Shown here: positions 8,089-42,484 of the stretch, in pieces
Layout of the letters: each line of letters begins with the position of its first letter
Numbering within the stretch: position 1 is the first letter of the stretch
NCBI GenBank assembly: GCA_018896215.1
Contig: JAHINB010000003.1
Span: forward strand, 3,776 to 67,775
Direction: 5' to 3'
Source: Patescibacteria group bacterium
Lineage (GTDB): Bacteria > Patescibacteriota > WWE3 > 0-14-0-20-40-13
Length of the DNA stretch: 64,000 nucleotides
Position numbers and translations under genes: made by a program
Notes under the pieces: generated by a model
The model's input: only the letters and a program-made list of their open reading frames with translations
What the model was told of the DNA's origin: nothing
Database searches by the model: none

Positions 8089-8486
8089 GGGGATGATGGG
8101 AATCGATTGGTAAACAAGGCGTAAAAATCAAGCCGAAAATGTTGGGTATTTTCGTTAAGATCCCAACAAAACACAAATGCTGAAGAAGCAAGTTTCGTTC
8201 CTGTAGAAGAGTACGCTTTGGCGTACGCCTAAACAGGTGTTTGGCGCCGTTTTCTTTTAGCGGACGCGCCAGGCACAACCAGAGCTAAAAGAGGTTAGAA
8301 TAGTTATGCAGGTTATCTATATTTTAATCTGATTGGGTTTCCAATCGAACTTATAACCCGGTGAGGGGGTTTTTCTTGTTCTTTTACCCCCAAAATCGCG
8401 ACTTCATTAAAAGAATAAACAAGCTTGTAAAAATTTTTGCGATATTGTTTGTCAACACGGGGGTTCAACTCCCCCCATCTCCACCA
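8089..8486 (+). ncRNA. ssrA: tmRNA (ssrA)
   Basis: The 5' GGGGATG pairs with the 3' CATCTCC-ACCA. The 3' tRNA-like T-arm is GGGGGTTCAACTCCCCC followed by ...CCACCA. An internal tag-like frame ends ...EEYALAYA-TAA, resembling the canonical ...ENYALAA. The gene sits immediately downstream of smpB. Confidence 0.8.
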
Positions 8487-8624
8487 TGCTTCACTAAAGT
8501 TTCGCATGGCGCAGCCACATATAAGGAATTTTCCAAATCGGCGAAGCCATGAGAAAATTTAGGCTGAAGCATGAGTGCCCTTCGTAGCTCCGAACTAAGC
8601 GAGGAGCGTAGTAGGGCTATTGTT

Positions 8625-8900
8625 ATGTCCATGTACTATGTATATATAATTCAGAGTGTATCCAACCCAAATAAAACTTATGTTGGATATACAGAGGATC
8701 TCAAAAAGAGAATCTTTGAACATAATATTGGAGCGAACAAATCTACAGAAAATTTTAAACCGTGGAAGCTTCTTTCCTACATAGCCCTTACAGATAAATA
8801 TCAAGCGTTACAATTAGAGAAGTATCTAAAACAAGGATCTGGAAAAGCTTTTATGAACAAGCATCTAATAACTATAAGCTCCCCCCATGAACAACTATAA
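8625..8900 (+). CDS. GIY-YIG nuclease family protein (small stand-alone)
   Basis: MYYVYIIQS...YVGYTEDLKKRIFEHN is a GIY-YIG motif. The ORF-track start at 8571 is probably too far upstream; the likely start is MSMYYVY. Confidence 0.65.
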   Translation: MSMYYVYIIQSVSNPNKTYVGYTEDLKKRIFEHNIGANKSTENFKPWKLLSYIALTDKYQALQLEKYLKQGSGKAFMNKHLITISSPHEQL

Positions 8901-10719: not shown

Positions 10720-11481
10720 TTAAGAGAATTTCTTTTTTATGTAGTCGGTAATATAGATAAATAATTTAGCAAGATTTTCTCTCTCATTTATTCTAATAAA
10801 GGGTTTTAAGTCCTGAATAAATTCCTTTTCGTTAAAGGCTGTAAGTCTCTCAATAAACTCCTTTTTATTGAATTTCTCTCTATAGTAGGCAAGCTTTTTG
10901 TCAATTAGGTTAAAATCAATTTTTCCACCTAGTTCTATTAAAACCCATAAATCATAAAGATCCCGCATTTTTTTGCGAGTTAAGATTGCCCTAACCTTCT
11001 CAGCAATAATTTCATTAATGCTTAACGAGTTAATGTAATTTTTAACGATTATGGGATAGACAGTTTCCATAATTCTATTTTGTGGCTCGATTACGCTTTC
11101 TCTAAAGGAAAAATCCAGTTTTACATATACTGGTGTTTTAAATCCCAAGATAGTTGTGGTCAAAAGATATGACTTACCAACCAAAGCTTTTTTGGCTTTG
11201 CATTTAATGGGGTATTTACTCTCTACATCAGAAAAAACTTTTAAAATCTCGCTTTCAAAAACGGGGAGATCTAAATTTGCAGTAAAATCTAAATCTTCCG
11301 AGAAACGACTTCCTCCATATAACAACCTAATTGCAGTACCACCTTTAAAATAGATATCTCTAGAAAATTTATATGAGTAAAGTTCGTTTAAGAAAAGTAT
11401 TTGAATAAACTCCCGAGCAATAACACTTTCGTCAATTTTGTTTTTACTTGCCAACTCTTTTATTTGATCTAGAGAAATCAT
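10720..11481 (-). CDS. Nucleotidyltransferase AbiEii/AbiGii toxin family (type IV TA toxin, DUF1814)
   Basis: FKGGTAIRLLYGGSRFSEDLDFT is the hallmark NTase motif of AbiEii. Confidence 0.8.
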   Translation of the reverse strand: MISLDQIKELASKNKIDESVIAREFIQILFLNELYSYKFSRDIYFKGGTAIRLLYGGSRFSEDLDFTANLDLPVFESEILKVFSDVESKYPIKCKAKKALVGKSYLLTTTILGFKTPVYVKLDFSFRESVIEPQNRIMETVYPIIVKNYINSLSINEIIAEKVRAILTRKKMRDLYDLWVLIELGGKIDFNLIDKKLAYYREKFNKKEFIERLTAFNEKEFIQDLKPFIRINERENLAKLFIYITDYIKKKFS

Positions 11482-12068
11482 AAATATTTATCAATTAACA
11501 CCGCGATTCCACTTTTGCTATTAGCAGAGACTAAAGGTAAATACAATCTGATCTTTTCTTTTGATAATTGCGATAAGTCCATCTCACTAAGGTAATTTTC
11601 TGTCCTAAAAGACTTGGTAACGAAGTAAAAATAGTCAAATAAAGCTTTTTCGGGGTAGGCAATTAAGAAGTTGTTTTTTGATTCGTAACCAGTTAAAAGC
11701 TCCTTTTTTATTTGTGAATAACTAAATATTTTATCGTTAATGTTTTTAACACAAGTTTTCTTTGTTGTGATAGCAGTAATTTCAAAAGGGAATTGGCTTA
11801 AGATTCCGTAGTAATTTAAAGCCGATTCCAAGGAAATATAGGATGGATTATACAAGTAGCTACTAGTAGCAAAATCCGAGGGGGCGTTTTGTTTTAAATA
11901 ATATTTTCCTCTTTCTAATTGGACAAACAGACCAGAGCCGATAAGACTACTGATAGTATTCTCCAGAGATCTCGCATTCTCAATTTTAAGAATAACAGCA
12001 ATATCTCTAGTATTAAAAAAGGTTTTTTTTGTTTCCAAGAGTTTATCGATCTGCAAGTACGCTTCCAT
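11478..12068 (-). CDS. AbiEi-like antitoxin/transcriptional regulator (type IV TA)
   Basis: Lies upstream of the AbiEii gene with a 4-nt ATGA overlap. An N-terminal wHTH-like region is typical of AbiEi. Confidence 0.55.
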   Translation of the reverse strand: MEAYLQIDKLLETKKTFFNTRDIAVILKIENARSLENTISSLIGSGLFVQLERGKYYLKQNAPSDFATSSYLYNPSYISLESALNYYGILSQFPFEITAITTKKTCVKNINDKIFSYSQIKKELLTGYESKNNFLIAYPEKALFDYFYFVTKSFRTENYLSEMDLSQLSKEKIRLYLPLVSANSKSGIAVLIDKYL

Positions 12069-17301: not shown

Positions 17302-17364
17302 GGAAATATGAGGGGATCATGCGCGTTTCGTATTTGGTACAATGAATCTAGGAATCAAAAAACT

Positions 17365-18318
17365 ATGAATTTAGAAAATTTACCAGAACATTTGGTGCAG
17401 TCCCCAATTTGGGGAAAATTTAAGACCCAAATGGGAACGCCAGCGTACACCGCGGGCGGTGTGCAATTTACCCTCCACAAATTACCTCTTTTGCCTTACT
17501 ACTTGGCATATGCTCCCAAGATCAATCTCAAGAATATTAACTATGAGGAAGTGGGTAAAGTTGCCGAATCAAAAAATGCGGTAGCCGTGCGTTTTGATGC
17601 ACCTAATGTTGTTTTGGCTGATGATACAGCAAAAAGTCGGGTACTACCCGATTCGGGTAGTACCCGATATAATGTTGTACCTGCGCCAAAAGATACTTTT
17701 GCTAAGTACAATATTCTTTTAGATTTAACTCCAAACGAAGAAACGCTTTTTAAAAATCTTAAATCCAAAACCCGTTACAACATCAGACTTGCCCAAAAAA
17801 ATGGCGTTGTAGTCAAGAAATCGAACGACATAAATACATTTTTAGAGCTCAATCGCAAAACCGCAAAAAGGCAGGGTTTTTTTGTCCACGCAGATTCTTA
17901 TTACAAAACTATGTTCGAGATCTTGCAAAAGGAAGGTTTGGCCTATCTATTTATTGCTTATTTAAATAACGAGCCACTTGTTGCTTGGATTCTAATCTGC
18001 TATCAAGGGGTTTTGTATTATCCTTACGGAGCTTCTTCCGAAAAACACAAAGAGGTTATGGCGTCCAACCTAATGATGTGGGAGGCAATAAAATTTGGAA
18101 AAGAAAAAGGTTGTAAACTGTTTGATATGTGGGGGGCAACTAACGATGAAAAAGACCCCTGGTGGGGGTTTACGAGATTTAAGTTGGGATATGGGGGAGA
18201 GTTGGTTAAATACATGGACTCCTTCGATCTCGTTATTAATAAACCGATATATAGACTATTTAATGGGGTGTATAGATTATTTTGGTTTTTTCTCAATTTA
18301 AAAAAGCTATGGATCTAA
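17365..18318 (+). CDS. FemAB-family aminoacyltransferase (peptidoglycan interpeptide bridge formation), copy 1
   Basis: FemAB-like layout: ...SKTRYNIRLAQKNGV..., acceptor-type fold. It contains the 31-nt REP-like palindrome at 17637-17667 within the reading frame. Confidence 0.7.
   Translation: MNLENLPEHLVQSPIWGKFKTQMGTPAYTAGGVQFTLHKLPLLPYYLAYAPKINLKNINYEEVGKVAESKNAVAVRFDAPNVVLADDTAKSRVLPDSGSTRYNVVPAPKDTFAKYNILLDLTPNEETLFKNLKSKTRYNIRLAQKNGVVVKKSNDINTFLELNRKTAKRQGFFVHADSYYKTMFEILQKEGLAYLFIAYLNNEPLVAWILICYQGVLYYPYGASSEKHKEVMASNLMMWEAIKFGKEKGCKLFDMWGATNDEKDPWWGFTRFKLGYGGELVKYMDSFDLVINKPIYRLFNGVYRLFWFFLNLKKLWI
17637..17667. repeat. 31-nt perfect palindrome TCGGGTACTACCCGA-T-TCGGGTAGTACCCGA inside the FemAB CDS (REP-like)
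   Basis: Read directly from the sequence. A copy identical over 30 of 31 nt occurs at 46435-46465 in an intergenic region. Confidence 0.6.
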
Positions 18319-19208
18319 GGCAAACAAAACACTGGGGAGAGTATTTAAAAGCTTTAGGCTGGGACTCTTTAGAAACAAAAGGCAATAATTTGAGGATAAA
18401 AAAGCTAGGAGTATTGGGGAGTATTATAAAAATCCAAAGACCGCGGGAGCTAAACGAAAAAATTCTCCAACAAATTGCCACAATTGCCCAAAAAGAAAGG
18501 GCAATTATTGTTAAACTAGAGCCTAATTTGGGGTTTAATGACGAAAGATTGCTTGCAAAGTATGGTTATAAAAAAGATACCTGGCCCACAGTTCCTGCCC
18601 ACACTATCATTTTAGACTTGAGTGACAACATTCCCAACACTTACACAAAAGACGCCCGATATTCTATTAGAAAAGCCGAAAAAGCGGGCATTCTCACCAA
18701 GTTTTTTAAAACCACAAACCCCCAAGCTCAAAAAGAATTTTATAAACTCTATAAAGAATCCGCCAAGGGAAAGTTTTTTGTGTCCTCATTTGAAAAGGAT
18801 TTTATTCCCAAATGCCAGGCGCTGGATAAGAGCTCATTTATAGCGTTAGCCTCGTGTGACAACAAGAATAAGGGATTATCCCAAATTTGGGATAATCCCT
18901 ATTCAGGGGCGTTTGTTTGTGTGGTTGGTGATACGGCACACTATCTGCACGCAGGTACCACTCAAGAGGGTAAGGACACAGGCGCCCCTTACAAGTTAAT
19001 CTTGGAGATTTGTCAAAAACTAAAAAAAGATAAAGTTAAGTATTTGGACTTGGAAGGAATTTATGATCCCAGATATCCTAAATTTACCAAAGGTTGGCAG
19101 GGGTTTACCCATTTTAAAAGCCAATTCGGTGGGCGCATCATGGAATTTCCGCCGTCATATACAAAGTACCGTGGCTTGCTTAAACTTCTTGCTAGTTTTA
19201 GCTATTAA
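18309..19208 (+). CDS. FemAB-family aminoacyltransferase, copy 2
   Basis: Paralogous to the upstream gene (...DARYSIRKAEKAG...). Its ATG overlaps the upstream stop. Confidence 0.65.
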   Translation: MDLRQTKHWGEYLKALGWDSLETKGNNLRIKKLGVLGSIIKIQRPRELNEKILQQIATIAQKERAIIVKLEPNLGFNDERLLAKYGYKKDTWPTVPAHTIILDLSDNIPNTYTKDARYSIRKAEKAGILTKFFKTTNPQAQKEFYKLYKESAKGKFFVSSFEKDFIPKCQALDKSSFIALASCDNKNKGLSQIWDNPYSGAFVCVVGDTAHYLHAGTTQEGKDTGAPYKLILEICQKLKKDKVKYLDLEGIYDPRYPKFTKGWQGFTHFKSQFGGRIMEFPPSYTKYRGLLKLLASFSY

Positions 19209-19223
19209 TTGTAGACTTTATGT

Positions 19224-19523
19224 ATGTTCTTTAATAACGCCCTAGCTTATACAATTTCTAACCCCACGCAGTACGGCGATATTGGATCTATTGTCACGAC
19301 CCTTATTCCCAACATCTATATGGTTGCGGGACTGATTTTCTTTTTCCTATTGGTAATGGGAGGGATTAATTATATGATGGCAGGGGGCGATGACAAGGCT
19401 ATTAACAAAGCCAAAAACACCCTCACCGCCGCGGTGATTGGTTTTGCTATAGTATTTGGAAGTTTGTTTGTGATTAAAATTTTAGAAATTGTTTTGGGGA
19501 TTAAATTGTTTTCCATAGGATAA
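19224..19523 (+). CDS. Pilin-like small membrane protein (VirB2/TrbC-like, T4SS-pilin-like), array member 1
   Basis: Hydrophobic helix - GGINYMMAGGDDKAINKAKNTLT - second hydrophobic helix. Shares the core motif with the eight downstream paralogs. Confidence 0.6.
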   Translation: MFFNNALAYTISNPTQYGDIGSIVTTLIPNIYMVAGLIFFFLLVMGGINYMMAGGDDKAINKAKNTLTAAVIGFAIVFGSLFVIKILEIVLGIKLFSIG

Positions 19524-20147
19524 ATGTCTACAAATAATTATTCTGCTAGGTTGATTGCGGTTCTCCTTGGAGTCTTTTTGGGTTTAATTTTTGTGTCCCG
19601 AAGCGTTCTGGCCTATTGCGAGGATAGTACTGGTCAAAGATATGATGTTTTGTGCAATACAGATAGTCAATGTCAACAGGATACAGTTGTTATTGGCGGA
19701 GTCGGGGAGAGAATCTGTATGGTAGGAATTATTTGTCAGCTAAATGTTGCTGCTCCTGTCGGTGCCAGGATGGCTCCAGGTTTTAACAATGCTCTTCCTG
19801 CCTCCGAAAAGGGAGTCTGTGTGTCTTCGTTGGGGTATATAAACATTGCTCGAAACAAAATTGTTGGCGGATACAGTTTAACGGGAACTGGTTTGCGGGA
19901 TCTGATTAACAATGTTACCTTGGCGGTGGGTGTTGTTGTGGGGCTAATATTTTTTGTGATGCTGATTTTGGGTGGAATTGCGTACATGATGAGTAGTGGA
20001 GACGAAAAACAGCTAACTAAAGCTAAGCAACAAATAACCGCAGGACTCATTGGGCTGGTGATTGTTTTTATGGCGTGGTGGGTGGTAAAAATAATTAGTG
20101 TAATTTTTGGAATTAATATTTTACAACCGTCATTTACAGGTCCTTGA
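19524..20147 (+). CDS. Pilin-like protein, array member 2, with an N-terminal Cys-rich extension
   Basis: Signal peptide, a roughly 90-aa region with 7 Cys, then the core ...GGIAYMMSSGDEKQLTKAKQQITAGLIG..., ending PSFTGP-TGA. Confidence 0.6.
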   Translation: MSTNNYSARLIAVLLGVFLGLIFVSRSVLAYCEDSTGQRYDVLCNTDSQCQQDTVVIGGVGERICMVGIICQLNVAAPVGARMAPGFNNALPASEKGVCVSSLGYINIARNKIVGGYSLTGTGLRDLINNVTLAVGVVVGLIFFVMLILGGIAYMMSSGDEKQLTKAKQQITAGLIGLVIVFMAWWVVKIISVIFGINILQPSFTGP

Positions 20148-20150
20148 TAT

Positions 20151-20528
20151 ATGAATATTTTACTTGCAAGAACATTTGATCTTTTTGATAAAACTAAACC
20201 CGCTGATGGTATTTTCGGAGTGATCCCAGGCTCTCAAAAAGATGCCGCCCTTGGAGGTAGTGCGAATTTGTTTGTTGAGACAATAAGTTATGTGGTTATT
20301 GCTGCGGGAGTTGTTGCGGGGCTGATACTATTGGGAATGTTGATAATGGGAGCAATAACTTACATGACGAGTGCGGGAGACGAAAAGGTTTTAACTAGAG
20401 CCAAACAACAGATGACTAACGCCGTTATTGGGTTTGTTATTATAGCTATGTCTTATTGGATTGTTAGAATTATTGGTACAATTTTTGGATTACCGAATAT
20501 TTTAAAACCAACATTTATAGGTCCATAA
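20151..20528 (+). CDS. Pilin-like protein, array member 3
   Basis: Core ...GAITYMTSAGDEKVLTRAKQQMTNAVIG..., ending PTFIGP-TAA. Confidence 0.6.
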   Translation: MNILLARTFDLFDKTKPADGIFGVIPGSQKDAALGGSANLFVETISYVVIAAGVVAGLILLGMLIMGAITYMTSAGDEKVLTRAKQQMTNAVIGFVIIAMSYWIVRIIGTIFGLPNILKPTFIGP

Positions 20529-20531
20529 AAT

Positions 20532-20891
20532 ATGACAAAAAACTTATTGGCGATAACAGAATTTAAACCGGATAAATATATTGGTGGGGTGCTTCCTAGC
20601 CAGAGTTCCGGCGCTACCCAGCCCGCCGAGTCAATTTTTGGTCAAACGGTGCAGTATATAATTTCTGCTGCATTTGTCATCTCGGGACTTGCCTTTCTGG
20701 TGACTTTTATTATGGGGGCGTTTACTTACCTATCCAGCGCTGGGGATGAGAAGCAGTTGGATAAGGCCAAAAAGACTATGACTAATGGCGTGATAGGCTT
20801 TGTAATTATGGCAGTAACATTTTTGATCGTTAACCTATTAGAGAATATCTTTGGGATAGCGCTTACTACTTTTACATTTGAAGGACTTTAA
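20532..20891 (+). CDS. Pilin-like protein, array member 4
   Basis: Core ...GAFTYLSSAGDEKQLDKAKKTMTNGVIG... Confidence 0.6.
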   Translation: MTKNLLAITEFKPDKYIGGVLPSQSSGATQPAESIFGQTVQYIISAAFVISGLAFLVTFIMGAFTYLSSAGDEKQLDKAKKTMTNGVIGFVIMAVTFLIVNLLENIFGIALTTFTFEGL

Positions 20892-20897
20892 AATATT

Positions 20898-21512
20898 ATG
20901 ACTACTAATTATGGGAATTTAAATCCAGTTGGGTACTTTGGTAGCGCCATAAAAACTGGGCAATTTGTTTCGGTGATTATTACGGTAATAACTGTTGTTG
21001 CTGGGCTGTACTTTTTAGTTAACCTTGCCATGGGGGGTTTAAGCTACGCCACAAGTGCGGGGGACGAAAAGGAGCTTGCCAAGGCTAGAAAAACACTTAG
21101 CAACGCGCTATTGGGGTTTCTTCTTGTGGTATCTTCATATTTTATTTCTGGTTATGTGGCTTTAAGACTTGGAATGCAAGATATTCTAAAACCTGCCATT
21201 AATACCGCAAGCAATACCTCCCTTGTATGTGTAAATATTACTATGACTCCAGCGAACCCGTCTACCACAGTTGCCTCTTATGATATATATCTGCACTCTG
21301 CTGGTGTAGACTTTTACAAATCACACTGGACAAAGACGGTTGGTGAGGATGTCATATCTTTAAGTTTTTCTAAATCTGCATTTCCAGTTGTAGCAGTGAC
21401 AGCACTTGTGGTACCTATTATTCCAGGTGCTGGAGCCCAGCCTCCGAAAATAGGAATGTTGGGCGCGTATGATGCGAATGGATGCTACTTTACAGAATTT
21501 GATAATTTGTAA
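20898..21512 (+). CDS. Pilin-like protein, array member 5, with a roughly 90-aa C-terminal extension
   Basis: Core ...GGLSYATSAGDEKELAKARKTLSNALLG..., followed by an extra domain (LVCVNITMTPANPST...). Confidence 0.6.
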   Translation: MTTNYGNLNPVGYFGSAIKTGQFVSVIITVITVVAGLYFLVNLAMGGLSYATSAGDEKELAKARKTLSNALLGFLLVVSSYFISGYVALRLGMQDILKPAINTASNTSLVCVNITMTPANPSTTVASYDIYLHSAGVDFYKSHWTKTVGEDVISLSFSKSAFPVVAVTALVVPIIPGAGAQPPKIGMLGAYDANGCYFTEFDNL

Positions 21513-21518
21513 TCAATT

Positions 21519-21869
21519 ATGGAGAAAAAATTTCTAACATTTAGCCTAGGGGATGTAAAAAACAACGCTATACCTAACGCAGTTCCGCAAACTGGTAGTA
21601 ATACATATACTGGGAACATAGAGTCTATCATCAGTGTTATTATTGGAACGATAACAATTATTGCTGGTGTTGCCTTGTTGCTCTACTTGGCGATGGGGGC
21701 GTTTACCTATATGACAGCAGGGGGGGACGAAAAGGCGGCGACCAAAGCTAAAGGCATGATCACGGATGCGGTGATTGGACTGATTATAGTTGTTGCCAGC
21801 ATGACCATTGCGACAATTTTATTAAAGATTTTTGGATTAGATATTAAAGCCCTGCCCTGGTATTCCTAA
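21519..21869 (+). CDS. Pilin-like protein, array member 6
   Basis: Core ...GAFTYMTAGGDEKAATKAKGMITDAVIG... Confidence 0.6.
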   Translation: MEKKFLTFSLGDVKNNAIPNAVPQTGSNTYTGNIESIISVIIGTITIIAGVALLLYLAMGAFTYMTAGGDEKAATKAKGMITDAVIGLIIVVASMTIATILLKIFGLDIKALPWYS

Positions 21870-21871
21870 TT

Positions 21872-22219
21872 ATGAAATTAGCTGTTATTACAAACCCCGC
21901 TCTTCCCTCCGGATCGTCGGTGCAAACCGCCTCGGGTTTTGCTAACTATGTTTCGATTGCTCTGCGCACCATGTACATTATCGGTGGTGTTGCCATGACC
22001 GTAATTTTAGTTTATGGGGGACTCATGTACATTACCAGCGTCGGCGACGATAAAGCGCTTTCTAAAGCTAAAAAAATTATGACCGACGCTATTATTGGCA
22101 TTATAATTTTGGCTTCTACCATTCCCATCGCTAAAATTTTAGAAAGTATTTTTGGCTTAAATATCTTTAATATTAGTTTTCCGGCTTTTTCTGATTTTAT
22201 TGGAGTTGGAGGAACTTAA
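21872..22219 (+). CDS. Pilin-like protein, array member 7
   Basis: Core ...GGLMYITSVGDDKALSKAKKIMTDAIIG... Confidence 0.6.
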   Translation: MKLAVITNPALPSGSSVQTASGFANYVSIALRTMYIIGGVAMTVILVYGGLMYITSVGDDKALSKAKKIMTDAIIGIIILASTIPIAKILESIFGLNIFNISFPAFSDFIGVGGT

Positions 22220-22220
22220 G

Positions 22221-22922
22221 ATGCTTGATTTAACTCAATTGATCGCCCCAGTTTACGCCGCCGTTTCTGGCGGGACAGTAGATACCAGCTCCTGGCAACC
22301 GGAAAACTTTAAAGGGCTGATAGAAATCGCCATTCGGACGCTTTTTGTGGTTGGGGGCGTAGCCTTTGTGATTTTGTTTTTAGTTGGCGCAATACGATAT
22401 ATCACTAGCGGGGGAGATGTTAAAGCGGTGGATGGGGCAAAGAAAAATATTACCGCGGCAATTGTGGGGGTTTTGATTTTAGCTTCGGTTTACACTGTGG
22501 CGTGGTTTTTAAATAGGACCCTGGGCGCGCCGACTTTTGGTGGAGTTGTTAGTTGGACAGGGAGTGGGGGTGGGTACACCAGTCCCCCTGGAGTTGGCGC
22601 AATCCCAAGTGGTTGCGCACCAGATAATTGTCCATTTGATGGTAGAACTGGCAATAACCGTTGTTTTGGAGGCTGGACTTTTGGTTGCGATTTAGTTTCT
22701 GATCCCAAACAAAAATCTAAGTGCTTTAGATTAAGCAATGCTTCTGGTGGATGGGATTCGGGAAGTCACAACAAATGGATCTTAAATGCTTGTCAAGTTC
22801 CGGGAGAAACAGATCCAGCAAAAACTCTTGTCGATTTTCCGGTTGGTGATTGGGGTGATGTCTGTGTTCCTCATGATCAAGGCGTGAGTTCTAAATCTTG
22901 TGATTGTGGACAATGCTTGTAG
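22221..22922 (+). CDS. Pilin-like protein, array member 8, with a C-terminal Cys/Gly/Trp-rich domain
   Basis: ATG at 22221 preceded by a GGAGGAA SD. Core ...GAIRYITSGGDVKAVDGAKKNITAAIVG..., then a roughly 120-aa tail with 10 Cys (GCAPDNCPFDG...CDCGQCL). Confidence 0.6.
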   Translation: MLDLTQLIAPVYAAVSGGTVDTSSWQPENFKGLIEIAIRTLFVVGGVAFVILFLVGAIRYITSGGDVKAVDGAKKNITAAIVGVLILASVYTVAWFLNRTLGAPTFGGVVSWTGSGGGYTSPPGVGAIPSGCAPDNCPFDGRTGNNRCFGGWTFGCDLVSDPKQKSKCFRLSNASGGWDSGSHNKWILNACQVPGETDPAKTLVDFPVGDWGDVCVPHDQGVSSKSCDCGQCL

Positions 22923-22996
22923 TTCCGAATGCTTGCAAAGAGATTAGTTGTTAGTTACAATGATTAAAGTTTAACTTGGGAGGTGAGTAAATTACT

Positions 22997-23410
22997 ATGA
23001 ACTTCAAAAAAATACTCGGATCGGTGTCGCTTGCCACAGCAACCGCCTTGTCTTTGGTCAAAGGTGTGTTTGCGGCTGGTGTGGATTTGTCCATACAAAC
23101 AGGAACTTTTCCAACTGGTTCGCAAAGGTCGTTTGGAAGCTTTTTTAGCTTTGCCATCAGAATACTGTTTGCCTTGGGCGGAATCCTGATGCTGGTCTTT
23201 TTGATTATGGGTGGGATTCGCTACATTACCAGCGGAGGCGACAAATTGCAGGCGCAAGGCGCCAGAGACATGATTACCAACGCTTTAATTGGAATCATTA
23301 TTATTGCCGCATCTTACGCTATAGCAACTTTGCTGAATAGCTTGTTTGGAATTGATATCTTTAATGCTACAATCAGTATTCCAATGACCAATCCTGTTGT
23401 TTCACCATAA
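22997..23410 (+). CDS. Pilin-like protein, array member 9
   Basis: Strong GGGAGGTGA SD, a clear signal peptide (MNFKKILGSVSLATATALSLVKGVFA), and core ...GGIRYITSGGDKLQAQGARDMITNALIG... Confidence 0.6.
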   Translation: MNFKKILGSVSLATATALSLVKGVFAAGVDLSIQTGTFPTGSQRSFGSFFSFAIRILFALGGILMLVFLIMGGIRYITSGGDKLQAQGARDMITNALIGIIIIAASYAIATLLNSLFGIDIFNATISIPMTNPVVSP

Positions 23411-23411
23411 A

Positions 23412-23465
23412 CTCAAATCGCGCGATTTGAGACGCAAAAGCCGCGGTTTTTACCGCGGTTTTTGG
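23412..23465. terminator. Bidirectional terminator region between the pilin array (+) and the serine hydrolase gene (-)
   Basis: Perfect 20-nt palindrome CTCAAATCGCGCGATTTGAG at 23412-23431, then CCGCGG-TTTTTA-CCGCGG-TTTTT at 23441-23463. T/A runs flank it on both strands. Confidence 0.6.
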
Positions 23466-25177: not shown

Positions 25178-26359
25178 GTGGGTTACACTGTACCTAACAT
25201 GATAAAAAGACAAATAATCTTGCCTCAAAATACAAGCTTTTTTCTTTTCGGACCACGCGGTACTGGAAAATCTTATCTTATAAAGGAGCGTTATCCTAAA
25301 TCTGTGTACATAGACTTACTAGAATCCGATACATACCGACAGCTACTAGCAAAACCAGAGAGATTAAGGGAATACGCAACATTAAACAAGAATCTTCCTG
25401 TAGTTATTGACGAAATACAAAGAGTTCCAAATCTATTAAACGAAGTTCACCGCCTAATCGAAAACGAAAAGATAAACTTTGTACTTACTGGATCGAGTGC
25501 TAGAAAACTTAAAGAAACGCAAGCCAATTTACTTGCAGGTAGGGCATTAAAATACAATCTATTTCCACTAACTCTTTCGGAGATAGGGAAAGATGTATCT
25601 TTAGATAGGATTTTAAAAGACGGTCTATTGCCAACTATTTACGACCCTAATAAAAATATCGATCCAGCTAAGTATCTGGAGAGCTATGTACAGATTTACC
25701 TAGAGGAAGAAGTTTTACAGGAGGGTTTAACTAGAAACTTAGCCAATTTTTCGCGTTTCCTAGAAATTGCAAGTTTTTCTCAAGGGCAACAACTAAATGT
25801 GTCAGAAGTAGCAAGAGAATCATCTATAAACAGAAAGGTTGCTGAATCCTACTTTAGAATTTTGTATGATTTACTAATTGCTTACGAACTTCCAGTTTTT
25901 AAAAAAAGAGTAAAAAGAAAACTGGTATCTCAAAGCAAGTTTTATTACTTTGATGTCGGAGTTTATTCCACAATAAAGCCAAAGGGGTTTTTGGATAGGA
26001 GAGAAAATGGAGAAGGCATACTTTACGAAAGCCTTGTTCTCCAGGAAATTGTGGCTACCAACTCTTATCTAGGCTCAAAATACGAAATTAGTTACTGGAG
26101 AACAAAAAGTGGTGTCGAGGTAGATTTTGTGCTTTACGGGGAAGACAAATTAATTGCAATAGAGGTTAAAAGAAAAGATAATATTTTAAAAAGTGATATT
26201 ACTGGGTTGTTAACATTTAAAACCGATTATCCTATGGTAAAGTCGTTTGTCTTTTACGGAGGAGATAAGATATTAAATATAAATGGTGTTATAGCTATAC
26301 CAATAAAAGAGGCTCTTTTGAACTTAACGGAGATATTCCAAGGAAGCTATCCAGGTTAG
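25178..26359 (+). CDS. AAA+ ATPase, AAA_14/DUF4143 family (paralog 2)
   Basis: Walker A GPRGTGKSYL and Walker B VVIDEIQ, with a DUF4143-like C-terminus. Confidence 0.8.
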   Translation: MGYTVPNMIKRQIILPQNTSFFLFGPRGTGKSYLIKERYPKSVYIDLLESDTYRQLLAKPERLREYATLNKNLPVVIDEIQRVPNLLNEVHRLIENEKINFVLTGSSARKLKETQANLLAGRALKYNLFPLTLSEIGKDVSLDRILKDGLLPTIYDPNKNIDPAKYLESYVQIYLEEEVLQEGLTRNLANFSRFLEIASFSQGQQLNVSEVARESSINRKVAESYFRILYDLLIAYELPVFKKRVKRKLVSQSKFYYFDVGVYSTIKPKGFLDRRENGEGILYESLVLQEIVATNSYLGSKYEISYWRTKSGVEVDFVLYGEDKLIAIEVKRKDNILKSDITGLLTFKTDYPMVKSFVFYGGDKILNINGVIAIPIKEALLNLTEIFQGSYPG

Positions 26360-26785: not shown

Positions 26786-27967
26786 CTAAAGAACAACTGG
26801 TGATAAAAACCCTGGTTTTTCCAGAAATCTTTTTGAGACGACATAATTTTGAGATATTCCAAGTTCTAAAGATAAAGTGGAGAGTTTGGAAAAATCCCGC
26901 ACTGTTCCAGTAAGTTTTATCTCGAAAGCAATATGTTTATCTAAAATAGCGTCAATCTCGGCGGTATTGCGTTTATTATAGAAACTGATTTTATTGTAGC
27001 CCGAAAGTTGGTTTATAACAGCATTCTCAAATACCTGTGCTTCGCTCACTTTTCCAATCACATTCAAAAGTCCAGTGTCCGTAAAGAAGACCTTTTTACC
27101 TCCTGCTACGGCTCTATCAATACTATTGCTAAATCTTGGCAAAAGCCGAATAAAAAATGTCCCCTGCAAAAATTCAAGAAAACGATATATCTTTACTCTA
27201 TCAATAGAGAGCTCACTGGATAAACGGGTTACATCAAGCATTGACCCAACTCGGGGAACCAGAAGTAAAATCATATCTCGAAGTTCTCGAATATCTGTGT
27301 AGTCTGATAATATTTTAATATTTTTTTCAAAAAACGATGCGAAGATATTTTTGAGAACCATCACCTTCATATTTTTATCCTCTGTTGTTACCACTTCAGG
27401 AAAGCCACCGTATGTGAGAAAATCATCATATTCTGCAACACGCGCTTTATGAGTAAAAATACTATTTTTACTTGGCGCATCTTGTAAAGTAAGATTTAGA
27501 ATTTCCTTTAGAGAAACAACATCTCTAAAGTAGAGATATTCTTGGAAGCTTAATGGAGGAAGTTCGTACAAGAATTTACGACCAGATAAAGACTCGGGAA
27601 ATAGGGTTTTTAAGTAATAGTTGGAAGAACCTGTTAGATAGAATTTAACACTATAATGGTCGATTAGATACTTAATAACTTTAGTTATCTCAGGGAAATT
27701 TTGAATTTCGTCAATAAACACAGATAAATTACTAGCCTTTTTTCCCATGTCAGTAAGTCTTTTATAGATTACTCTGTAATCTTCGTCTTCAAATATTTTC
27801 TGATCGAGTGGGTTACCAAAATCAAACCACAATTTTGGCTCTTTTACTTCTTCGTATATCTGGCGCATTAGAGTTGTCTTTCCGACTTGTCGCATACCAG
27901 TAATAAGAAGTGCGTTTTTATGATTGAGATGTTTTATTAATTCGTAATACAGAAGTCTCTTTTTCAT
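26786..27967 (-). CDS. AAA+ ATPase, AAA_14/DUF4143 family (paralog 3)
   Basis: Walker A GMRQVGKTTL and Walker B VFIDEIQ. Confidence 0.8.
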   Translation of the reverse strand: MKKRLLYYELIKHLNHKNALLITGMRQVGKTTLMRQIYEEVKEPKLWFDFGNPLDQKIFEDEDYRVIYKRLTDMGKKASNLSVFIDEIQNFPEITKVIKYLIDHYSVKFYLTGSSNYYLKTLFPESLSGRKFLYELPPLSFQEYLYFRDVVSLKEILNLTLQDAPSKNSIFTHKARVAEYDDFLTYGGFPEVVTTEDKNMKVMVLKNIFASFFEKNIKILSDYTDIRELRDMILLLVPRVGSMLDVTRLSSELSIDRVKIYRFLEFLQGTFFIRLLPRFSNSIDRAVAGGKKVFFTDTGLLNVIGKVSEAQVFENAVINQLSGYNKISFYNKRNTAEIDAILDKHIAFEIKLTGTVRDFSKLSTLSLELGISQNYVVSKRFLEKPGFLSPVVL

Positions 27968-31824: not shown

Positions 31825-32198
31825 ATAAGTTTGTAACGCTTTCGCTTCGCGAAACATTTTAGTATTTTTTCTCTAATCTTGTTATAGAAACTAGTTGACT
31901 TGGCTAGTTTAATAATTTAATGTAAGGTTGTTAGGATTACATTACAATATCCCTCGCCGAGGGAAAAAGCAGATGCTTAACTATAAATTGGCAAAATTAA
32001 TGACCACCTGTTTTTGGGTTTTTACCGAGGGTGGTTTTTTAGTCTCTAGCACTTTAAAAACTGAATATCTCATTAATTAAGCGGTAGCAAAATGCTCATC
32101 TCTTTTGAGTTGGCTATTTTGCTATCGCTTAAGCGTGGCTCCACAATTACTTTGTGGAAAGACAATTCCACTTTCAGTTCAGTTTTAGGAGGTTTTCC

Positions 32199-33287
32199 AT
32201 GTCTCGCTCAAAGATCGCTGTGTTGTTCGGCTTATCCCTTCTCGTGCTCATGAGTTCGTGCGCGAGTCCTGCCACCCCACAAGTGGTGGAAAAGATCGTT
32301 GAGAAGGTGGTCGTGGTCACTGCACAACCAGTTCCTGTAATCAAGCTCGTGCATCTCAATGTCCCGCTAGGGTGGGTAAACAATGACGAGTTCGTGGCGC
32401 TACAGGTGGCTCAAGCCAAGGGGTTCTATGCCGAGGCAGGCCTCGATGTCAACTTGATCTCTGGCGGTGGCTCCACCGGGTTCGATCCTCTGGTTGCCAT
32501 CATGGGTTTCGATGACAGTATTCGGATCGGTGTGCCGGCGGCAATGAGCTTGGTCGTCAAGGCCAAGTCGGAGGGTATTGATGTGGTAGCAGTGGCTGCC
32601 CTGACTCAAGAAGAGCCGGGCGGTTTCATTGCTCTTACCAAGTACGCCCCCCAGGCCACCGGGCTCTGTGACTTTAAGGGCAAGGTCGTCTCCATGCAAA
32701 CGGAGGCGACATGGTATGTAGATGCACTCGGAAAGCAATGCGTCACCGGTGCCCTAGTTGCTGGCGAGGACTTTACCGTCGTGCCGGCTGGTTGGACACC
32801 TGATTGCCTTCTGGCCACCGGCGCCAACCGTTGCGATTTTTATTGTGGTTGGGCGACCAACCAGGTGTTCGGTCTCGAGCAACAGGGGTTGAAGCTCGGA
32901 GTGGACTTCCAGTTCTTTCTGGCGAGCAAGTATCTGCCGTTTCACTATGCTGATGTCATCGTGGTGAACGGCGCCTGGGCCAGGAAAAACCCGGAGATCG
33001 TTCGTGGCTTCGTTCAAGCCTCGATGAAAGGGTTGCAATATACCCTCGATCATCCTGACGAAGCGGTACAGATTTCTGGTGCGGTACCGGGGATGGATCT
33101 GGCTCACGCCACCTGGCGTATCCCGATTCAGAACAGACTCGTTACCAACGAAGACACCGCCAAATTCGGTGTTGGGTACATCGATGTGGGCAAGGTTCAG
33201 GATATGATCAACCTTCTCGCCGAGAAGGACCAGATCAAGACCGAGTTCGATGCCAGCACCGTCGTCGACAGCTCGTATCTGAAGTAG
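32199..33287 (+). CDS. ABC transporter substrate-binding lipoprotein, NMT1/THI5-like (NitT/TauT family); part of the GC-rich island
   Basis: Lipobox LLVLMSSC and an NMT1-like periplasmic binding fold. Its GC-rich codon usage is unlike the flanking genes. Confidence 0.7.
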   Translation: MSRSKIAVLFGLSLLVLMSSCASPATPQVVEKIVEKVVVVTAQPVPVIKLVHLNVPLGWVNNDEFVALQVAQAKGFYAEAGLDVNLISGGGSTGFDPLVAIMGFDDSIRIGVPAAMSLVVKAKSEGIDVVAVAALTQEEPGGFIALTKYAPQATGLCDFKGKVVSMQTEATWYVDALGKQCVTGALVAGEDFTVVPAGWTPDCLLATGANRCDFYCGWATNQVFGLEQQGLKLGVDFQFFLASKYLPFHYADVIVVNGAWARKNPEIVRGFVQASMKGLQYTLDHPDEAVQISGAVPGMDLAHATWRIPIQNRLVTNEDTAKFGVGYIDVGKVQDMINLLAEKDQIKTEFDASTVVDSSYLK

Positions 33288-33320
33288 TTCTATGTTCTAC
33301 TATGAAATATGGAGGGTGAA

Positions 33321-34094
33321 ATGAACGCACTCGGGATTCAAGATCTGACCGTACGGTTCGGTAATCTAATTGCTCTTTCGCAAGTATCGTTGACAGTGCA
33401 AGAGCATGAGATCGTCGCCCTTATCGGTCCATCTGGATGCGGAAAGTCCACCCTCTTGCGTGCAACAGTCGGCATTGTGCCTGGCATGGTGCCGACTGCT
33501 CACTTAGAAGGCGGGATTGACCTCTTTGGAAAATCGCCGATCGAACGCCACAACGGCGAGGTCGATATGGTTTTCCAAGAGTCTTGTCTCCTGCCCTGGA
33601 GAACAACCCAAGCCAATATCAGGTTGGGTTTGGAAATTCTTGGCAGGAATGCAAATAACGGCACTTTACCGACCATCCTGGAAGCCATTGGGCTGACAGA
33701 CTTTGCCAATTGTAAACCCCGCGCGCTATCAGGTGGTATGCGCCAACGCGCCAGCTTGGCCACATCACTTGTGACTCACCCAAAACTCTTACTCATGGAT
33801 GAGCCTTTTGCCAACCTCGACTCCTTAACCAGAGAACAGATGTGGCAACTCGTAGAGCATCTACATTTGGATGATAAAATCCAAGCCGCATTGTTGGTAA
33901 CCCACTCCATTGAAGAGGCTGTTGCTTTGGCTGATCGGGTACTGGTAATGAGTGAGCGACCCGGTCAAATCATCGGTGAAGTGGTTGTAAGACTTCCTCG
34001 TCCTCGGATCACTCCAGAGGGGTTGTTGGTCGAAGGCTTTGGGGCGGTAGCCAACCAAGTCCGTCGTTTCATCCGCCACGGAGGTGAAGTATGA
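33321..34094 (+). CDS. ABC transporter ATP-binding protein (NitT/TauT family); GC-rich island
   Basis: GPSGCGKSTLLR, LSGGMRQRASLA and LLLMDEPFANLD motifs. SD GGAGGG precedes the ATG at 33321. Confidence 0.85.
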   Translation: MNALGIQDLTVRFGNLIALSQVSLTVQEHEIVALIGPSGCGKSTLLRATVGIVPGMVPTAHLEGGIDLFGKSPIERHNGEVDMVFQESCLLPWRTTQANIRLGLEILGRNANNGTLPTILEAIGLTDFANCKPRALSGGMRQRASLATSLVTHPKLLLMDEPFANLDSLTREQMWQLVEHLHLDDKIQAALLVTHSIEEAVALADRVLVMSERPGQIIGEVVVRLPRPRITPEGLLVEGFGAVANQVRRFIRHGGEV

Positions 34095-34834
34095 AAAGGT
34101 CACAATGGCTGGTACCGCTGGTGACCCTCACCTTCCTGCTTGTGGCCTGCGAAGTGTCACTGACGCTGGCGCGAGTATCAACCTTCATTTTCCCCAAGCC
34201 AACGCTGATCGTCAAAGCGTTGGTTGAAAACTGGGGTTGGATCGTTGCCAACTTGCAAGTCACAGCCATGGAAGCAGTTGTCGGTTTCGCCCTTAGTATT
34301 GTGCTTGGGATAACACTGTCGACGGTTTGTCTGTTTGTCCCGCAAGCCGAGAACCTCGTCGTGCCTTTCGCCATCGCCATTCGCAATGTGCCGTTTGTTG
34401 CTTTGGCGCCGATTCTCTTCATGACGATGGGATATGGTCCCTGGCCCAAGATCATCATCGTTATGATCGTTAGTTTCTTTCCAATCATGACCAATCTTAC
34501 GGCTGGATTTGCAAGCGCAGAAGTCGCTCAAAAGGAAAGATTCTTTGTATGGCGAGCGACCCGTTGGCAGATGTTTGTCAAGCTTCAACTGCCTTCGGCT
34601 ATCCCGTATTTTGTGGCAGGGTTGGAAATCGCGGTTAGTAACATCATCATTGCCGCGATCGTTGGCGAATTGATGGGAACGACCAAGGGCTTAGGATTGG
34701 TCATTATTATGGCCGTGTCCCAGTACCGGTTTCCTTTGCTGATGGCAACCGTAGTGGTTACGACAGCACTGTCAATTGTGACTACATGGTTGCTACGCCA
34801 GGCAATGCGAATTGCCTTTTCACCTTGGAATTAA
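34091..34834 (+). CDS. ABC transporter permease (BPD_transp_1, NitT/TauT family); GC-rich island
   Basis: Six TM helices and an EAA-like loop region. Its start overlaps the ATPase stop. Confidence 0.8.
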   Translation: MKRSQWLVPLVTLTFLLVACEVSLTLARVSTFIFPKPTLIVKALVENWGWIVANLQVTAMEAVVGFALSIVLGITLSTVCLFVPQAENLVVPFAIAIRNVPFVALAPILFMTMGYGPWPKIIIVMIVSFFPIMTNLTAGFASAEVAQKERFFVWRATRWQMFVKLQLPSAIPYFVAGLEIAVSNIIIAAIVGELMGTTKGLGLVIIMAVSQYRFPLLMATVVVTTALSIVTTWLLRQAMRIAFSPWN

Positions 34835-34846
34835 GGAGAGTACACC

Positions 34847-35764
34847 GTGGACTACCAATCAATCCTGGATGTTTGTAGAAGTCAGTTTGAGGCTGATGCG
34901 GCGCGAACCGCATCTGTCGGAGGTTCCGGTACCCTTGCACTGGACAAGCGTGGAGGCATCGGTTTTCCCGAGGCCCTCACTTGTGTTTGCAACGATCGGA
35001 TTCTTCGATTCGAAGAGGTGTCAACGCCATTTGGGGATGTTCCGATGGTCAAACTCTTCGCAGTCAACGGCCAACCGGTCGTGCGGATTCCGATGCACGG
35101 TTGGCGATTGCCAGTGGCGACGCTCGAACACACTCAAGCAACCTTTTGGCTACTGGATCAGCTTGGCGTTCATCAAGTGCTCGTTGACGCTAGCGTTGGT
35201 GGGATCGGAGCCAAACCCATGGATGTCGTCATCCCCGATGATGTCTACAACCACGAGCCTGCCAAGATCGCTATGGCAAAGTTGGCCTTTGAATTGGGAA
35301 GAGACCCCTGGGTTCGGATGTATCAACCCTTCTGTCCCCGCTTAAGAAGCAAGTTGGTTACCTCAGTTCGTCAGGTTAAGACGGAAGGTCATGAACTTGG
35401 CGATCTCGTCGACGGCGGGGTCTACTGGACCACGCCTCTTGGTCCGTTTGAAACGGCTTTCGAGATAGCCACCTTCAAGACTCTTGGGGCTACCATCGTT
35501 GGCCAATCATCGGGGCAGGAAGCCCTAGCCGCTCGTATTCTTGGAATGTGTTTGGCTGTGGCCAACCCGGTTGTTAACTTTGCCGAAGGGCTCAACAACG
35601 CAGGCTGGTCTGGGGACAAAGGCATGGATTCCATGTACGAAGCCATCTCTATGCCCATGGCCCTCATGGTTTACTACACTCTTGAGCGAATCGTCAGCCA
35701 GACCCGCACCTGCGACTGCCAAACCATTGCTCACAGCCCTGATTTAGCTGGGCTGACATCGTAA
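34847..35764 (+). CDS. PNP/MTAP-family nucleoside phosphorylase-like protein; GC-rich island
   Basis: The C-terminal ...GATIVGQSSGQEALAARILGMCLAVANPVVNFAEG... parallels the MTAP/PNP family-1 active-site region (G..VG.T.VPE..LA.E.G.C...A.V.N.A). GTG start with an AAGGAG SD. Confidence 0.5.
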   Translation: MDYQSILDVCRSQFEADAARTASVGGSGTLALDKRGGIGFPEALTCVCNDRILRFEEVSTPFGDVPMVKLFAVNGQPVVRIPMHGWRLPVATLEHTQATFWLLDQLGVHQVLVDASVGGIGAKPMDVVIPDDVYNHEPAKIAMAKLAFELGRDPWVRMYQPFCPRLRSKLVTSVRQVKTEGHELGDLVDGGVYWTTPLGPFETAFEIATFKTLGATIVGQSSGQEALAARILGMCLAVANPVVNFAEGLNNAGWSGDKGMDSMYEAISMPMALMVYYTLERIVSQTRTCDCQTIAHSPDLAGLTS

Positions 35765-35783
35765 TTAGGATTAGGAGGAACCT

Positions 35784-36314
35784 GTGTCCAACATTCAAGT
35801 CCTAGCTACCGAGAGGCAAATCAGGCAAGCCGTGAGAAGGATTGCTCGAGAAGTCTCTCGGCGGTACCAGGAGGAGTCGATTCTTCTGGTTGGAGTTCTC
35901 ACCGGCGCTTTCGTTTTCATGGCGGATCTGGCGAGGGAGCTCTACCGTATGGGGATGACAGATGTCGAAATCGAGTTCATCGACATATCTTCGTATAGTG
36001 GTACGGAGTCTGGGCAGATCCGTTTCGATCGTGACCTGACCGTTCCCATCAGCGGTCGGCATGTGGTGATTGTGGAGGATATCATCGATACCGGGGCAAC
36101 GCTGGCGTTCCTGTTGAAGCTCCTCGAAGTCAGGGAACCAGCCAGTTTGATTGTAGTTGCCCTGTTCAACAAGGTCACCCGGCGGGTTGAAACCCTCCCG
36201 TCAGAACGGATCATAACGGGAATTGACCTGCCTAACAAGTTCGTGGTCGGCTACGGTCTTGACCGTAACGGAAAGTTTCGGCATCTCCCTTTTGTGGGGA
36301 TTGTCGCAAGTTGA
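35784..36314 (+). CDS. hpt: Hypoxanthine(-guanine) phosphoribosyltransferase; GC-rich island
   Basis: VVIVEDIIDTGATLAFLL PRPP motif and an HPRT-like length. GTG start with an AGGAGGAA SD. Confidence 0.85.
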   Translation: MSNIQVLATERQIRQAVRRIAREVSRRYQEESILLVGVLTGAFVFMADLARELYRMGMTDVEIEFIDISSYSGTESGQIRFDRDLTVPISGRHVVIVEDIIDTGATLAFLLKLLEVREPASLIVVALFNKVTRRVETLPSERIITGIDLPNKFVVGYGLDRNGKFRHLPFVGIVAS

Positions 36315-42175: not shown

Positions 42176-42484
42176 ATGCACTATATCTATCTGGTGCGTT
42201 GTGTGGATAATTCCTTGTACTGTGGGCAAACCACGGATTTGTCTCGTCGTGTCAATGAGCATAATTTTGATGGTAAAAAATCTGCCAAGTACACCAAAGG
42301 CAGAAGACCAGTAATTCTCGTCTATTCTGAAGAATTTGCCACATTCTCTGAAGCCTTAAAACGGGAATTAAAAATTAAACGCCTTCCAAAAGCAAAAAAG
42401 GAGGTCTTGGTTAATTCGGGATACTCCCATGAAAAACGCAATTATTTTATTGGAATTGTCCCAAATGGGACAGACCCGATTTAG
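42176..42484 (+). CDS. GIY-YIG nuclease family protein (second small stand-alone copy)
   Basis: IYLVRCVDNSLYCGQTTDLSRRVNEHN is a GIY-YIG motif. Confidence 0.65.
   Translation: MHYIYLVRCVDNSLYCGQTTDLSRRVNEHNFDGKKSAKYTKGRRPVILVYSEEFATFSEALKRELKIKRLPKAKKEVLVNSGYSHEKRNYFIGIVPNGTDPI

Follow-up and report, generated by a model that had tools for sequence, protein, structure and literature searches.

Patescibacteria account for much of the diversity of bacteria and live mostly attached to other microbes, holding on to these hosts and drawing material from them. Among the structures that could be involved are tandem arrays of genes for VirB2-like pilins, which are the closest described relatives of the locus reported here. 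Quinonero-Coronel et al. (2025, Microb Genom) searched 3,035 Patescibacteria genomes with the Pfam family T4SS_pilin (PF18895), among others, and found VirB2-like pilins in 1,948 assemblies containing VirB4, of which 1,135 have them near virB4, as well as 441 VirB2-like arrays of 2-11 pilin genes in 383 assemblies; identity between members of one array averaged 25% and reached at most 54% (PMC12102498). In Southlakia epibionticum ML1, a predicted pilin series lies inside a type IV secretion system (T4SS) cluster and is essential (Wang et al. 2023; PMC10633639). A 2025 review describes the S. epibionticum pilins as six VirB2-like proteins, structurally conserved and divergent in sequence, and calls a pilus 'an intriguing possibility' (PMC12857230), and the role of the T4SS has been reviewed as 'completely unknown' (PMC11665869). 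Both the T4SS and its pilin array are essential in the single species in which genetic work is possible. According to a preprint, PF18895 is also the dominant domain in freshwater-specific protein clusters, owing to Patescibacteria. Here we describe an array of nine PF18895 genes at positions 19224-23410 of a 64,000-nucleotide stretch of contig JAHINB010000003.1 from a WWE3 member of the Patescibacteria; this whole stretch is referred to as the window.

In the published survey, an array consisted of at least two pilin genes in tandem or one gene apart, each recognized by a pilin hidden Markov model (HMM) with an independent E-value (i-E) <0.001 and >50% profile coverage (PMC12102498). The locus analysed here has nine tandem genes in a Patescibacteria host, with E-values of at most 7.7e-5 and 68-97% coverage, and represents a kind of pilin-gene array that has been catalogued in this group before. 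It leaves the general picture unchanged, and its comparative value is modest. What the present analysis adds is a conserved colinear set of paralogs, a terminal gene with a promoter-like site of its own and fast-evolving appended domains, together with one incremental point, the near-absence of leaders in the WWE3 lineage.

Nine tandem genes of one pilin family

The listing of open reading frames (ORFs) contains nine successive plus-strand ORFs at 19224-23410, with products of 99-240 amino acids (aa). This bears out, to the nucleotide, the nine same-strand tandem genes claimed in a preliminary description of the window, and the nine loop strings quoted there are all exact. In line with the pilin-like assignment made at that time, for which PF18895 had been named as a check, all nine proteins match this family, at E 1.7e-11 to 7.7e-5 and over profile spans from 16-63 to 3-71 of the 71 positions. 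Five exceed the gathering score of 26.6 bits; the other four fall short of it by 0.2-3.5 bits (E 7.5e-6 to 7.7e-5), and PF18895 is their only credible match. Because all nine match one Pfam family, the array is not a product of chance. Its features, in window coordinates, are the following:

19224..19523, plus strand: pilin-like gene 1, 99 aa, a minimal copy with a short N-tail, a first transmembrane helix (TM1), a Y-x4-G-D turn and a second transmembrane helix (TM2); PF18895 E 5.1e-7, 30.1 bits, above the gathering score
19524..20147, plus strand: pilin-like gene 2, 207 aa, with a classical signal peptide, a ~100-aa domain with six cysteines and the pilin core; PF18895 E 1.7e-11, 44.5 bits
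20151..20528, plus strand: pilin-like gene 3, 125 aa; PF18895 E 3.8e-8, 33.7 bits
20532..20891, plus strand: pilin-like gene 4, 119 aa; PF18895 E 2.2e-8, 34.5 bits; NF045849 E 3.7e-8
20898..21512, plus strand: pilin-like gene 5, 204 aa, the core plus a ~105-aa beta-rich C-terminal domain bracketed by two conserved cysteines; PF18895 E 1.3e-5, 25.6 bits
21519..21869, plus strand: pilin-like gene 6, 116 aa; PF18895 E 6e-8, 33.1 bits
21872..22219, plus strand: pilin-like gene 7, 115 aa; PF18895 E 7.5e-6, 26.4 bits
22221..22922, plus strand: pilin-like gene 8, 233 aa (from ATG 22221, the form in public gene calls) or 240 aa (from TTG 22200), the core plus a ~125-aa C-terminal domain with ten cysteines; PF18895 E 7.7e-5, 23.1 bits
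22923..22996, plus strand: 74-nt spacer with a promoter-like site and a strong Shine-Dalgarno sequence before gene 9
22997..23410, plus strand: pilin-like gene 9, 137 aa, with a classical signal peptide; PF18895 E 1.1e-5, 25.8 bits
23412..23463, no strand assigned: putative terminator formed by two GC-rich hairpins next to A and T runs; it separates the array from a convergent beta-lactamase-family gene

The intergenic gaps are, in order, 0, 3, 3, 6, 6, 2, -20 (+1 from ATG 22221) and 74 nt. Just ahead of the stop codon of the convergent gene, the two terminator hairpins (23412-23431 and 23441-23458) have a folding free energy (dG) of -31 kcal/mol (z = -5.0), and none of 200 shuffled sequences folded equally well; a terminator working from both sides, as had been claimed, is plausible.

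Each protein has a ~70-aa core in which two long hydrophobic helices are joined by a tight S/A-G-D turn. The positions invariant in an alignment of the nine copies are, in copy-1 numbering, G36, G46, Y50, G55, D56, A63, G73 and G92. The loop motif reads Y-x-x-x-x-G-D, and the loop has no invariant residues other than the Y, the G-D and the A in xA[KR]. The motif first put forward, Y-x-[TS]-[SA]-G-D-[ED]-K...KAK, had captured the conserved Y and G-D; it is off by one residue, copies 8 and 9 do not have its [ED]-K, and its KAK is variable. At the DNA level, the nine copies of a 43-nt segment that codes for the loop are 60-74% identical, and there is no longer or more similar repeat. An AlphaFold2 model of copy 3, built from a 34-sequence alignment, predicts helices at residues 36-73 and 78-112 around a turn at S74-A-G-D77, with predicted local distance difference test (pLDDT) values of 81-92 in the core and a disordered N-tail. 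In the model the invariant G-D belongs to this four-residue hairpin turn, and Lys and Arg residues lie on the first turns of helix 2. Of the layout described earlier, two helices and a basic loop, the helical hairpin is thus retained, with a tight turn instead of a long loop and the basic residues on the second helix.

The turn region carries 2-4 K/R, with a net charge of 0 to +2, and the Cys-rich extensions are confined to the N- and C-terminal sides (6, 2 and 10 cysteines). Cys-rich domains at both termini, combined with K/R on the turn, fit a hairpin with both termini outside and the turn in the cytoplasm, which is the topology known for VirB2-type pilins and for ATP synthase subunit c. In a VirB2-like filament these termini would face outward. 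By hydropathy and reading of the sequences, a signal-peptide-like N-terminus is present only in protein 2 (MSTNNYSARLIAVLLGVFLGLIFVSRSVLA, followed by Y) and protein 9 (MNFKKILGSVSLATATALSLVKGVFA, followed by A), and not in every copy as previously described; the other seven proteins begin with short, non-hydrophobic N-tails of 25-46 aa. In protein 2, the N-terminal hydrophobic segment spans residues 10-28 and all six cysteines fall within the N-tail; a classical signal peptide is found here, where a 100-aa N-terminal domain must be exported.

All nine proteins also align with NF045849, the Mbov_0395 family of pilin-like conjugal transfer proteins from a Mycoplasma integrative and conjugative element (ICE), at E 3.7e-8 to 6.5e-3. 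The scores of 16-33 bits, the best being 32.9 bits for copy 4, lie below the equivalog cut-off of 40, and the array proteins appear to be related to this family, not equivalent to it. The TrbC family (PF04956), which had been suggested as a second candidate, gave a single match in the array, to copy 6 (E 0.061, 14 bits against a cut-off of 27.9). We additionally compared the family alignment with seven annotated VirB2/TrbC proteins, whose genes each lie between virB1 and virB3 on plasmids of mating-pair formation type T (MPF_T). Here hhalign returned a probability of 1.8% (E 0.028), despite an alignment that was in register from TM1 through the turn to TM2. A profile search of PDB sequences found no solved pilin; the only matches were to de novo designed helical repeat proteins, in which 'GDP/GDE-K' loops resemble the motif by chance. 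In a Foldseek search of the PDB with the copy 3 model the best E-value was 1.7, and the fold searches were non-specific. Homology to proven VirB2/TrbC proteins could therefore not be shown by sequence, profile or fold, and the view that these proteins work like a VirB2 pilin rests on topology, on the gene neighbourhood of relatives and on published structure-based annotation, not on demonstrated common ancestry.

Other identities were considered and rejected. No holin family matched any copy at E up to 1, and the context contains no endolysin or phage genes; in the Pfam scan, neither holins nor any other family with two transmembrane helices, which the preliminary description had named as potential competitors, rivals PF18895. 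Type IV pilus pilins were set aside on the basis of the missing class III signal peptide (G-F/M-x-x-x-E, cleaved after the G), the presence of two transmembrane helices rather than one and the lack of a Pfam match to type IV pilus families. Rfam reveals only tmRNA and tRNAs, all elsewhere in the window, and no rRNA or other RNA gene beneath the array.

The family is large. An exhaustive profile search of 1.84 billion cluster representatives (50% identity) recovered 29,427 members with an E-value limit of 1e-10, and 94,512 when the limit was relaxed to 1e-3. The top matches were single polypeptides with 2-17 tandem pilin hairpins, such as P0051 (552 aa, six copies) and P0057 (1775 aa, 17 copies), with further examples in P0052, P0059, P0041 and L026 (9050-10432). 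Since the linkers have no internal start codons, these chains are true fusions and not mis-called arrays. They are hard to square with a simple one-subunit pilin model.

Colinear paralogs, appended domains and the last gene

Using the family HMM, we found arrays of 3-10 genes in 46 fetched loci, nearly all from Saccharibacteria, plus a WWE3 relative. The latter, candidate division WWE3 bacterium (L007), is the nearest species representative and has nine genes whose order and sizes match those of the array described here. The best matches between the two arrays fall on the diagonal by wide margins, at 40-83% identity: gene 1 pairs with position 1 of the L007 array (65%), gene 2 with its ortholog at 49% over 191 aa, and gene 7 is the most conserved copy between the species (83%). 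L007 also has a tenth copy on the opposite strand. Against the Saccharibacteria arrays, position-by-position orthology was not resolvable, with best-match margins of only a few bits.

Within the array, the paralogs share 28-57% local identity, and no DNA repeat exceeds 74% identity. With nothing beyond the 43-nt segment at 60-74%, the genes are best explained as old duplicates that have not undergone recent gene conversion. Taken together, the colinear one-to-one orthology, the lack of conversion tracts and the tight coupling of genes 1-8 argue, at the level of sequence comparison, for a fixed set of specialized subunits and not for an interchangeable repertoire. Purifying selection on gene 9, described below, points to a fixed set as well.

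A mosaic pattern was observed between strains when window positions 18282-23410 were compared with L001, L002 and L005. In two contigs of ~98% identity, genes 1-8 (3.7 kb) are 100% identical in nucleotides, whereas gene 9 (93%), the spacer (90.5%) and femAB (95-97%) are less alike; in a third contig, identity drops from 100% to 93.8% inside gene 4. Either recombination among strains that occur together or chimeras in the metagenome assembly would account for this mosaic.

Three copies carry appended domains, located at window positions 19611-19883 (copy 2), 21183-21509 (copy 5) and 22530-22919 (copy 8), and none of these has a Pfam match. The architecture of gene 2 also occurs in P0032, P0033, P0037 and P0040, and N- or C-terminal additions of a similar kind are found elsewhere in the family. 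In seven orthologs of gene 8, a near-invariant core is followed by a strongly varying Cys-rich tail, and the orthologs of gene 5 likewise combine a conserved core with a hypervariable C-terminal domain. AlphaFold2 predicts five strands in the latter domain at a pLDDT of 40-57, and the fold is not assignable. A homolog search with full-length copy 5 returned only three relatives; a word-based search with its C-terminal domain alone found no match and did not recover the query itself. From these alignments, the appended, probably extracytoplasmic domains appear to be the fast-evolving parts of the proteins, with cores conserved among orthologs.

Gene 9 is set apart by its 74-nt spacer, in which TTGCAA-17-TACAAT (22933-22961) resembles a sigma-70 promoter. 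A full, strong Shine-Dalgarno sequence, GGGAGGTGAG, precedes this gene and no other in the array; a loose 4-mer screen flags genes 2 and 5 too. The corresponding spacer of L007 (3596-3658) keeps both a promoter-like site (TTGACC-17-TATAAT) and the same Shine-Dalgarno sequence. A spacer of 60-80 nt late in the array is present in most arrays examined (including L008-L046), usually before the last gene and in a few arrays before the last two. Between gene 9 and its allele in a 98%-identical strain there are 29 nucleotide changes and only three amino acid changes, indicating purifying selection. These features suggest that the terminal pilin gene is separately, and probably highly, expressed, and they make gene 9 a candidate for a separately expressed major subunit.

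Genomic context and possible functions

The array lies in a housekeeping neighbourhood. Upstream are smpB with tmRNA, a comF-like gene, dnaJ-dnaK-grpE-hrcA, ksgA and two FemAB genes, and downstream are the beta-lactamase-family gene, a DUF134 gene, AAA_14/DUF4143 ATPases, transporters and tRNA synthetases. The FemAB genes (17308-19208) end 15 nt upstream of the array on the same strand, perhaps on one transcript that begins at ksgA (16477). FemAB and comF-like genes also lie a few kb from pilin genes in Nanosynbacter (L030, 4293-5219), a linkage that may be coincidental. The array proteins are identical to 'hypothetical proteins' L6255_04010-04040 of GCA_022012835.1 ('Candidatus Parcubacteria bacterium'), on the 102,994-bp contig JAKLRK010000020.1, near position 4,929 of which the window begins. 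GCA_018817985.1 ('Patescibacteria group bacterium') contains the array too, as do several metagenome assemblies. A search of 72,556 plasmids with copy 4 (tblastn) gave no match. The host is thus a member of the Patescibacteria, a lineage rich in episymbionts; the preliminary description had considered that the organism might be an episymbiont.

In relatives, members of the family do adjoin secretion genes. The six-gene array of Nanosynbacter TM7-008 (L030) lies next to a gene for a 937-aa TrbL/VirB6-like protein, and in L023 a VirB4-like ATPase (P-loop_TraG, DUF87, AAA_10; E 6e-28) is encoded 2 kb from a three-gene array. These neighbours tie the family independently to T4SS genes.

With moderate confidence, we interpret the locus as a chromosomal operon of nine anciently diverged T4SS_pilin paralogs that act in a T4SS-assembled, heteromeric pilus or conduit for host contact. 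The hairpins would insert into the cytoplasmic membrane with the basic turn towards the cytoplasm and both termini outside. Short N-tails would require no signal peptide for this, and the classical signal peptide of copy 2, one of two such copies, would serve to export the large domain, rich in Cys, at its N-terminus. The subunits would then be pulled from the membrane by a T4SS of the VirB4 type, with genes in another part of the genome, which would polymerize them into a short pilus or conduit that touches the host bacterium. In such a structure, the tightly coupled genes 1-8 would provide specialized minor subunits, of which three would decorate the outside and bind the host surface through their fast-evolving Cys-rich or beta-rich domains, and gene 9 would provide the bulk subunit, in keeping with a promoter-like site and a strong ribosome-binding site that the other genes do not share. 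This mechanism is the best available reading, although it is unproven for any member of the Patescibacteria.

Several observations weigh against an assembled pilus. No VirB4, VirB6, VirB3, VirD4 or relaxase gene was found in the 64-kb window, which agrees with the absence of nearby VirB4 and VirB6 reported earlier. No T4SS gene was found in the 4.9 kb upstream, where the contig ends, or in ~10 kb past the other end of the window, as read from another metagenome contig, one that shares the terminal gene of the window in identical form. By hydropathy and reading, the cleavable leader typical of VirB2-type propilins is lacking in seven of the nine copies. The chains of 2-17 hairpins are no less compatible with a role inside the membrane than with a filament, and the division into major and minor subunits is purely conjectural. 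Moreover, monoderm T4SSs normally lack a pilus. None has been observed for a Patescibacteria T4SS, and reviews name it as a possibility (PMC12857230). Several of these points would equally suit members of the same family that stay in the membrane, as accessory or channel-lining parts of a monoderm T4SS or as a host-contact scaffold, with no extracellular pilus, an explanation that we regard as unlikely. It gains from the fact that Gram-positive-type T4SSs, the type to which the machinery of the candidate phyla radiation (CPR) belongs, lack pili (PMC12102498), from the failure to demonstrate homology to canonical VirB2, and from the many family members that are covalent fusions of hairpins, six of them in P0051 and 17 in P0057. 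Nevertheless, 9-11 paralogs, some with large exported variable domains, seem excessive for a channel accessory, and structure-based annotation elsewhere classes such proteins as pilins (PMC10633639). The linkers of the fused hairpins would also lie on the side of the termini, so that a filament is geometrically possible. It is very improbable that the proteins have nothing to do with a T4SS and are small envelope proteins with two transmembrane helices (holin-like, bacteriocin/immunity or cell-wall proteins), perhaps tied to the FemAB peptidoglycan genes. The 15-nt gap to two FemAB genes, with which the array may share a transcript, a FemAB gene at most 5 kb from a lone Nanosynbacter pilin gene and the modest Pfam scores (23-44 bits) could be taken in that sense; opposed to this are the lack of any holin or other family that outscores PF18895, the VirB6-like and VirB4-like genes adjoining the arrays of relatives, the location of arrays inside the essential T4SS cluster of S. 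epibionticum (PMC10633639) and the independent similarity to the Mycoplasma ICE conjugation protein.

The paralogs could also be interchangeable major subunits, used singly or mixed, that evade host defences or match host strains. Such a repertoire has been suggested for the VirB2 paralogs of Bartonella and Anaplasma. It has tentatively been proposed for CPR as well (PMC12102498), and the preliminary description had seen a diversified repertoire in the present array. The low identity between paralogs (28-57%), the rapid evolution of the exposed appended domains and the strain mosaic, whose blocks of 100% and ~93% identity are compatible with recombination, would agree with this. It is weakened by the strict colinear orthology with another species, where every paralog is matched, in unchanged order, by a single clear ortholog, by the lack of long identical DNA tracts for gene conversion and by the 100% identity of genes 1-8 between strains that are 98% identical. 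In addition, no invertible or switchable element was found in the array, and gaps of 0-6 nt between genes 1-8 are those of co-translated, stoichiometric partners. We therefore consider a repertoire rather improbable. A long shot, finally, is that the 'T4SS pilins' of Patescibacteria are a separate, non-VirB2 family building a fixed heteromeric surface or membrane structure from eight coupled subunits and one that is separately promoted. Three of the eight translationally coupled subunits would then display fast-evolving host-binding domains, and the genes, uncoupled from T4SS genes here, would elsewhere have been fused into poly-hairpin chains of up to 17 units. If true, this would be a new kind of cell-surface assembly and not a conjugative pilus. 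The ordered paralog set, with gene 9 apart and fast-evolving domains on particular copies, leads to testable predictions as to which subunits are structural and which contact the host.

The window has further features of note. A GC-rich island at 32154-36314 (52% versus about 37-40% around it) encodes an NMT1/THI5-type ABC transporter (binding protein, ATPase and permease), a PNP_UDP_1 nucleoside phosphorylase and a phosphoribosyltransferase, and it looks like a horizontally acquired nucleobase/nucleoside salvage cassette, judging by composition and gene content. Defence- or addiction-type genes are numerous for a small genome: three AAA_14 + DUF4143 ATPase genes, paralogs of one another, at 3140-4291, 25178-26359 and 26786-27967 are accompanied by a toxin-antitoxin pair of the AbiEii/AbiEi kind at 10720-12068 and, at 43106-43720, by an AbiEii-type toxin gene that appears to stand alone. 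Two large proteins encoded at 365-2461 and 5863-7509 have no Pfam match, and neither matches TrbL/VirB6; one, a polytopic membrane protein of 698 aa, is encoded immediately behind an SMC_N/AAA_23 ATPase gene (seen in L053), and the other, of 548 aa, follows a DUF5657 gene. The tmRNA gene (tag AEEASFVPVEEYALAYA) adjoins smpB, and one of two small GIY-YIG-domain ORFs comes right after it (features at 8089-8486, 8571-8900 and 42176-42484).

Relation to known systems

The nearest systems are the Patescibacteria VirB2-like arrays, including the S. epibionticum series and the 'Sec secreted array' of Nanosynbacter lyticus TM7x. They share with this locus PF18895, a tandem arrangement on one strand, a chromosomal location and low identity between paralogs, and the nine genes found here fall within the published range of 2-11. 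As in about 40% of published cases, the array is unlinked to virB4 and virB6. It differs in its housekeeping context (hrcA-grpE-dnaK, ksgA and two femAB genes) and in having three copies with appended domains, and, unlike the Saccharibacteria arrays that we examined, which have hydrophobic N-terminal leaders, it lacks such leaders in most copies.

The likeness to canonical VirB2/TrbC/TraA pilins of diderms (PF04956; MPF_T and MPF_F) consists of two hydrophobic helices, a short polar or basic turn and a predicted topology with both termini outside. There is no significant sequence or profile similarity, the turn is seven residues longer here in the hhalign alignment and has its own Y-x4-G-D signature, and the cleaved long leader of canonical pilins has no counterpart in seven of the nine copies, which belong to a monoderm host. 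All canonical virB2 genes that we fetched lie between virB1 and virB3, whereas the neighbours here are femAB and the beta-lactamase-family gene. The Mbov_0395 family is likewise a two-helix protein of a monoderm T4SS, and nearly the full 80-residue model of NF045849 is aligned; that model derives, as its name indicates, from genes of a mobile element (ICE), in contrast to the chromosomal nine-gene array described here. The tandem VirB2 paralogs of Bartonella and Anaplasma likewise comprise multiple diverged pilin genes in a host-dependent bacterium. Those genes are bona fide PF04956 members of diderm pathogens and are thought to serve antigenic variation, whereas the array described here is a stable, colinear set of paralogs conserved between species.

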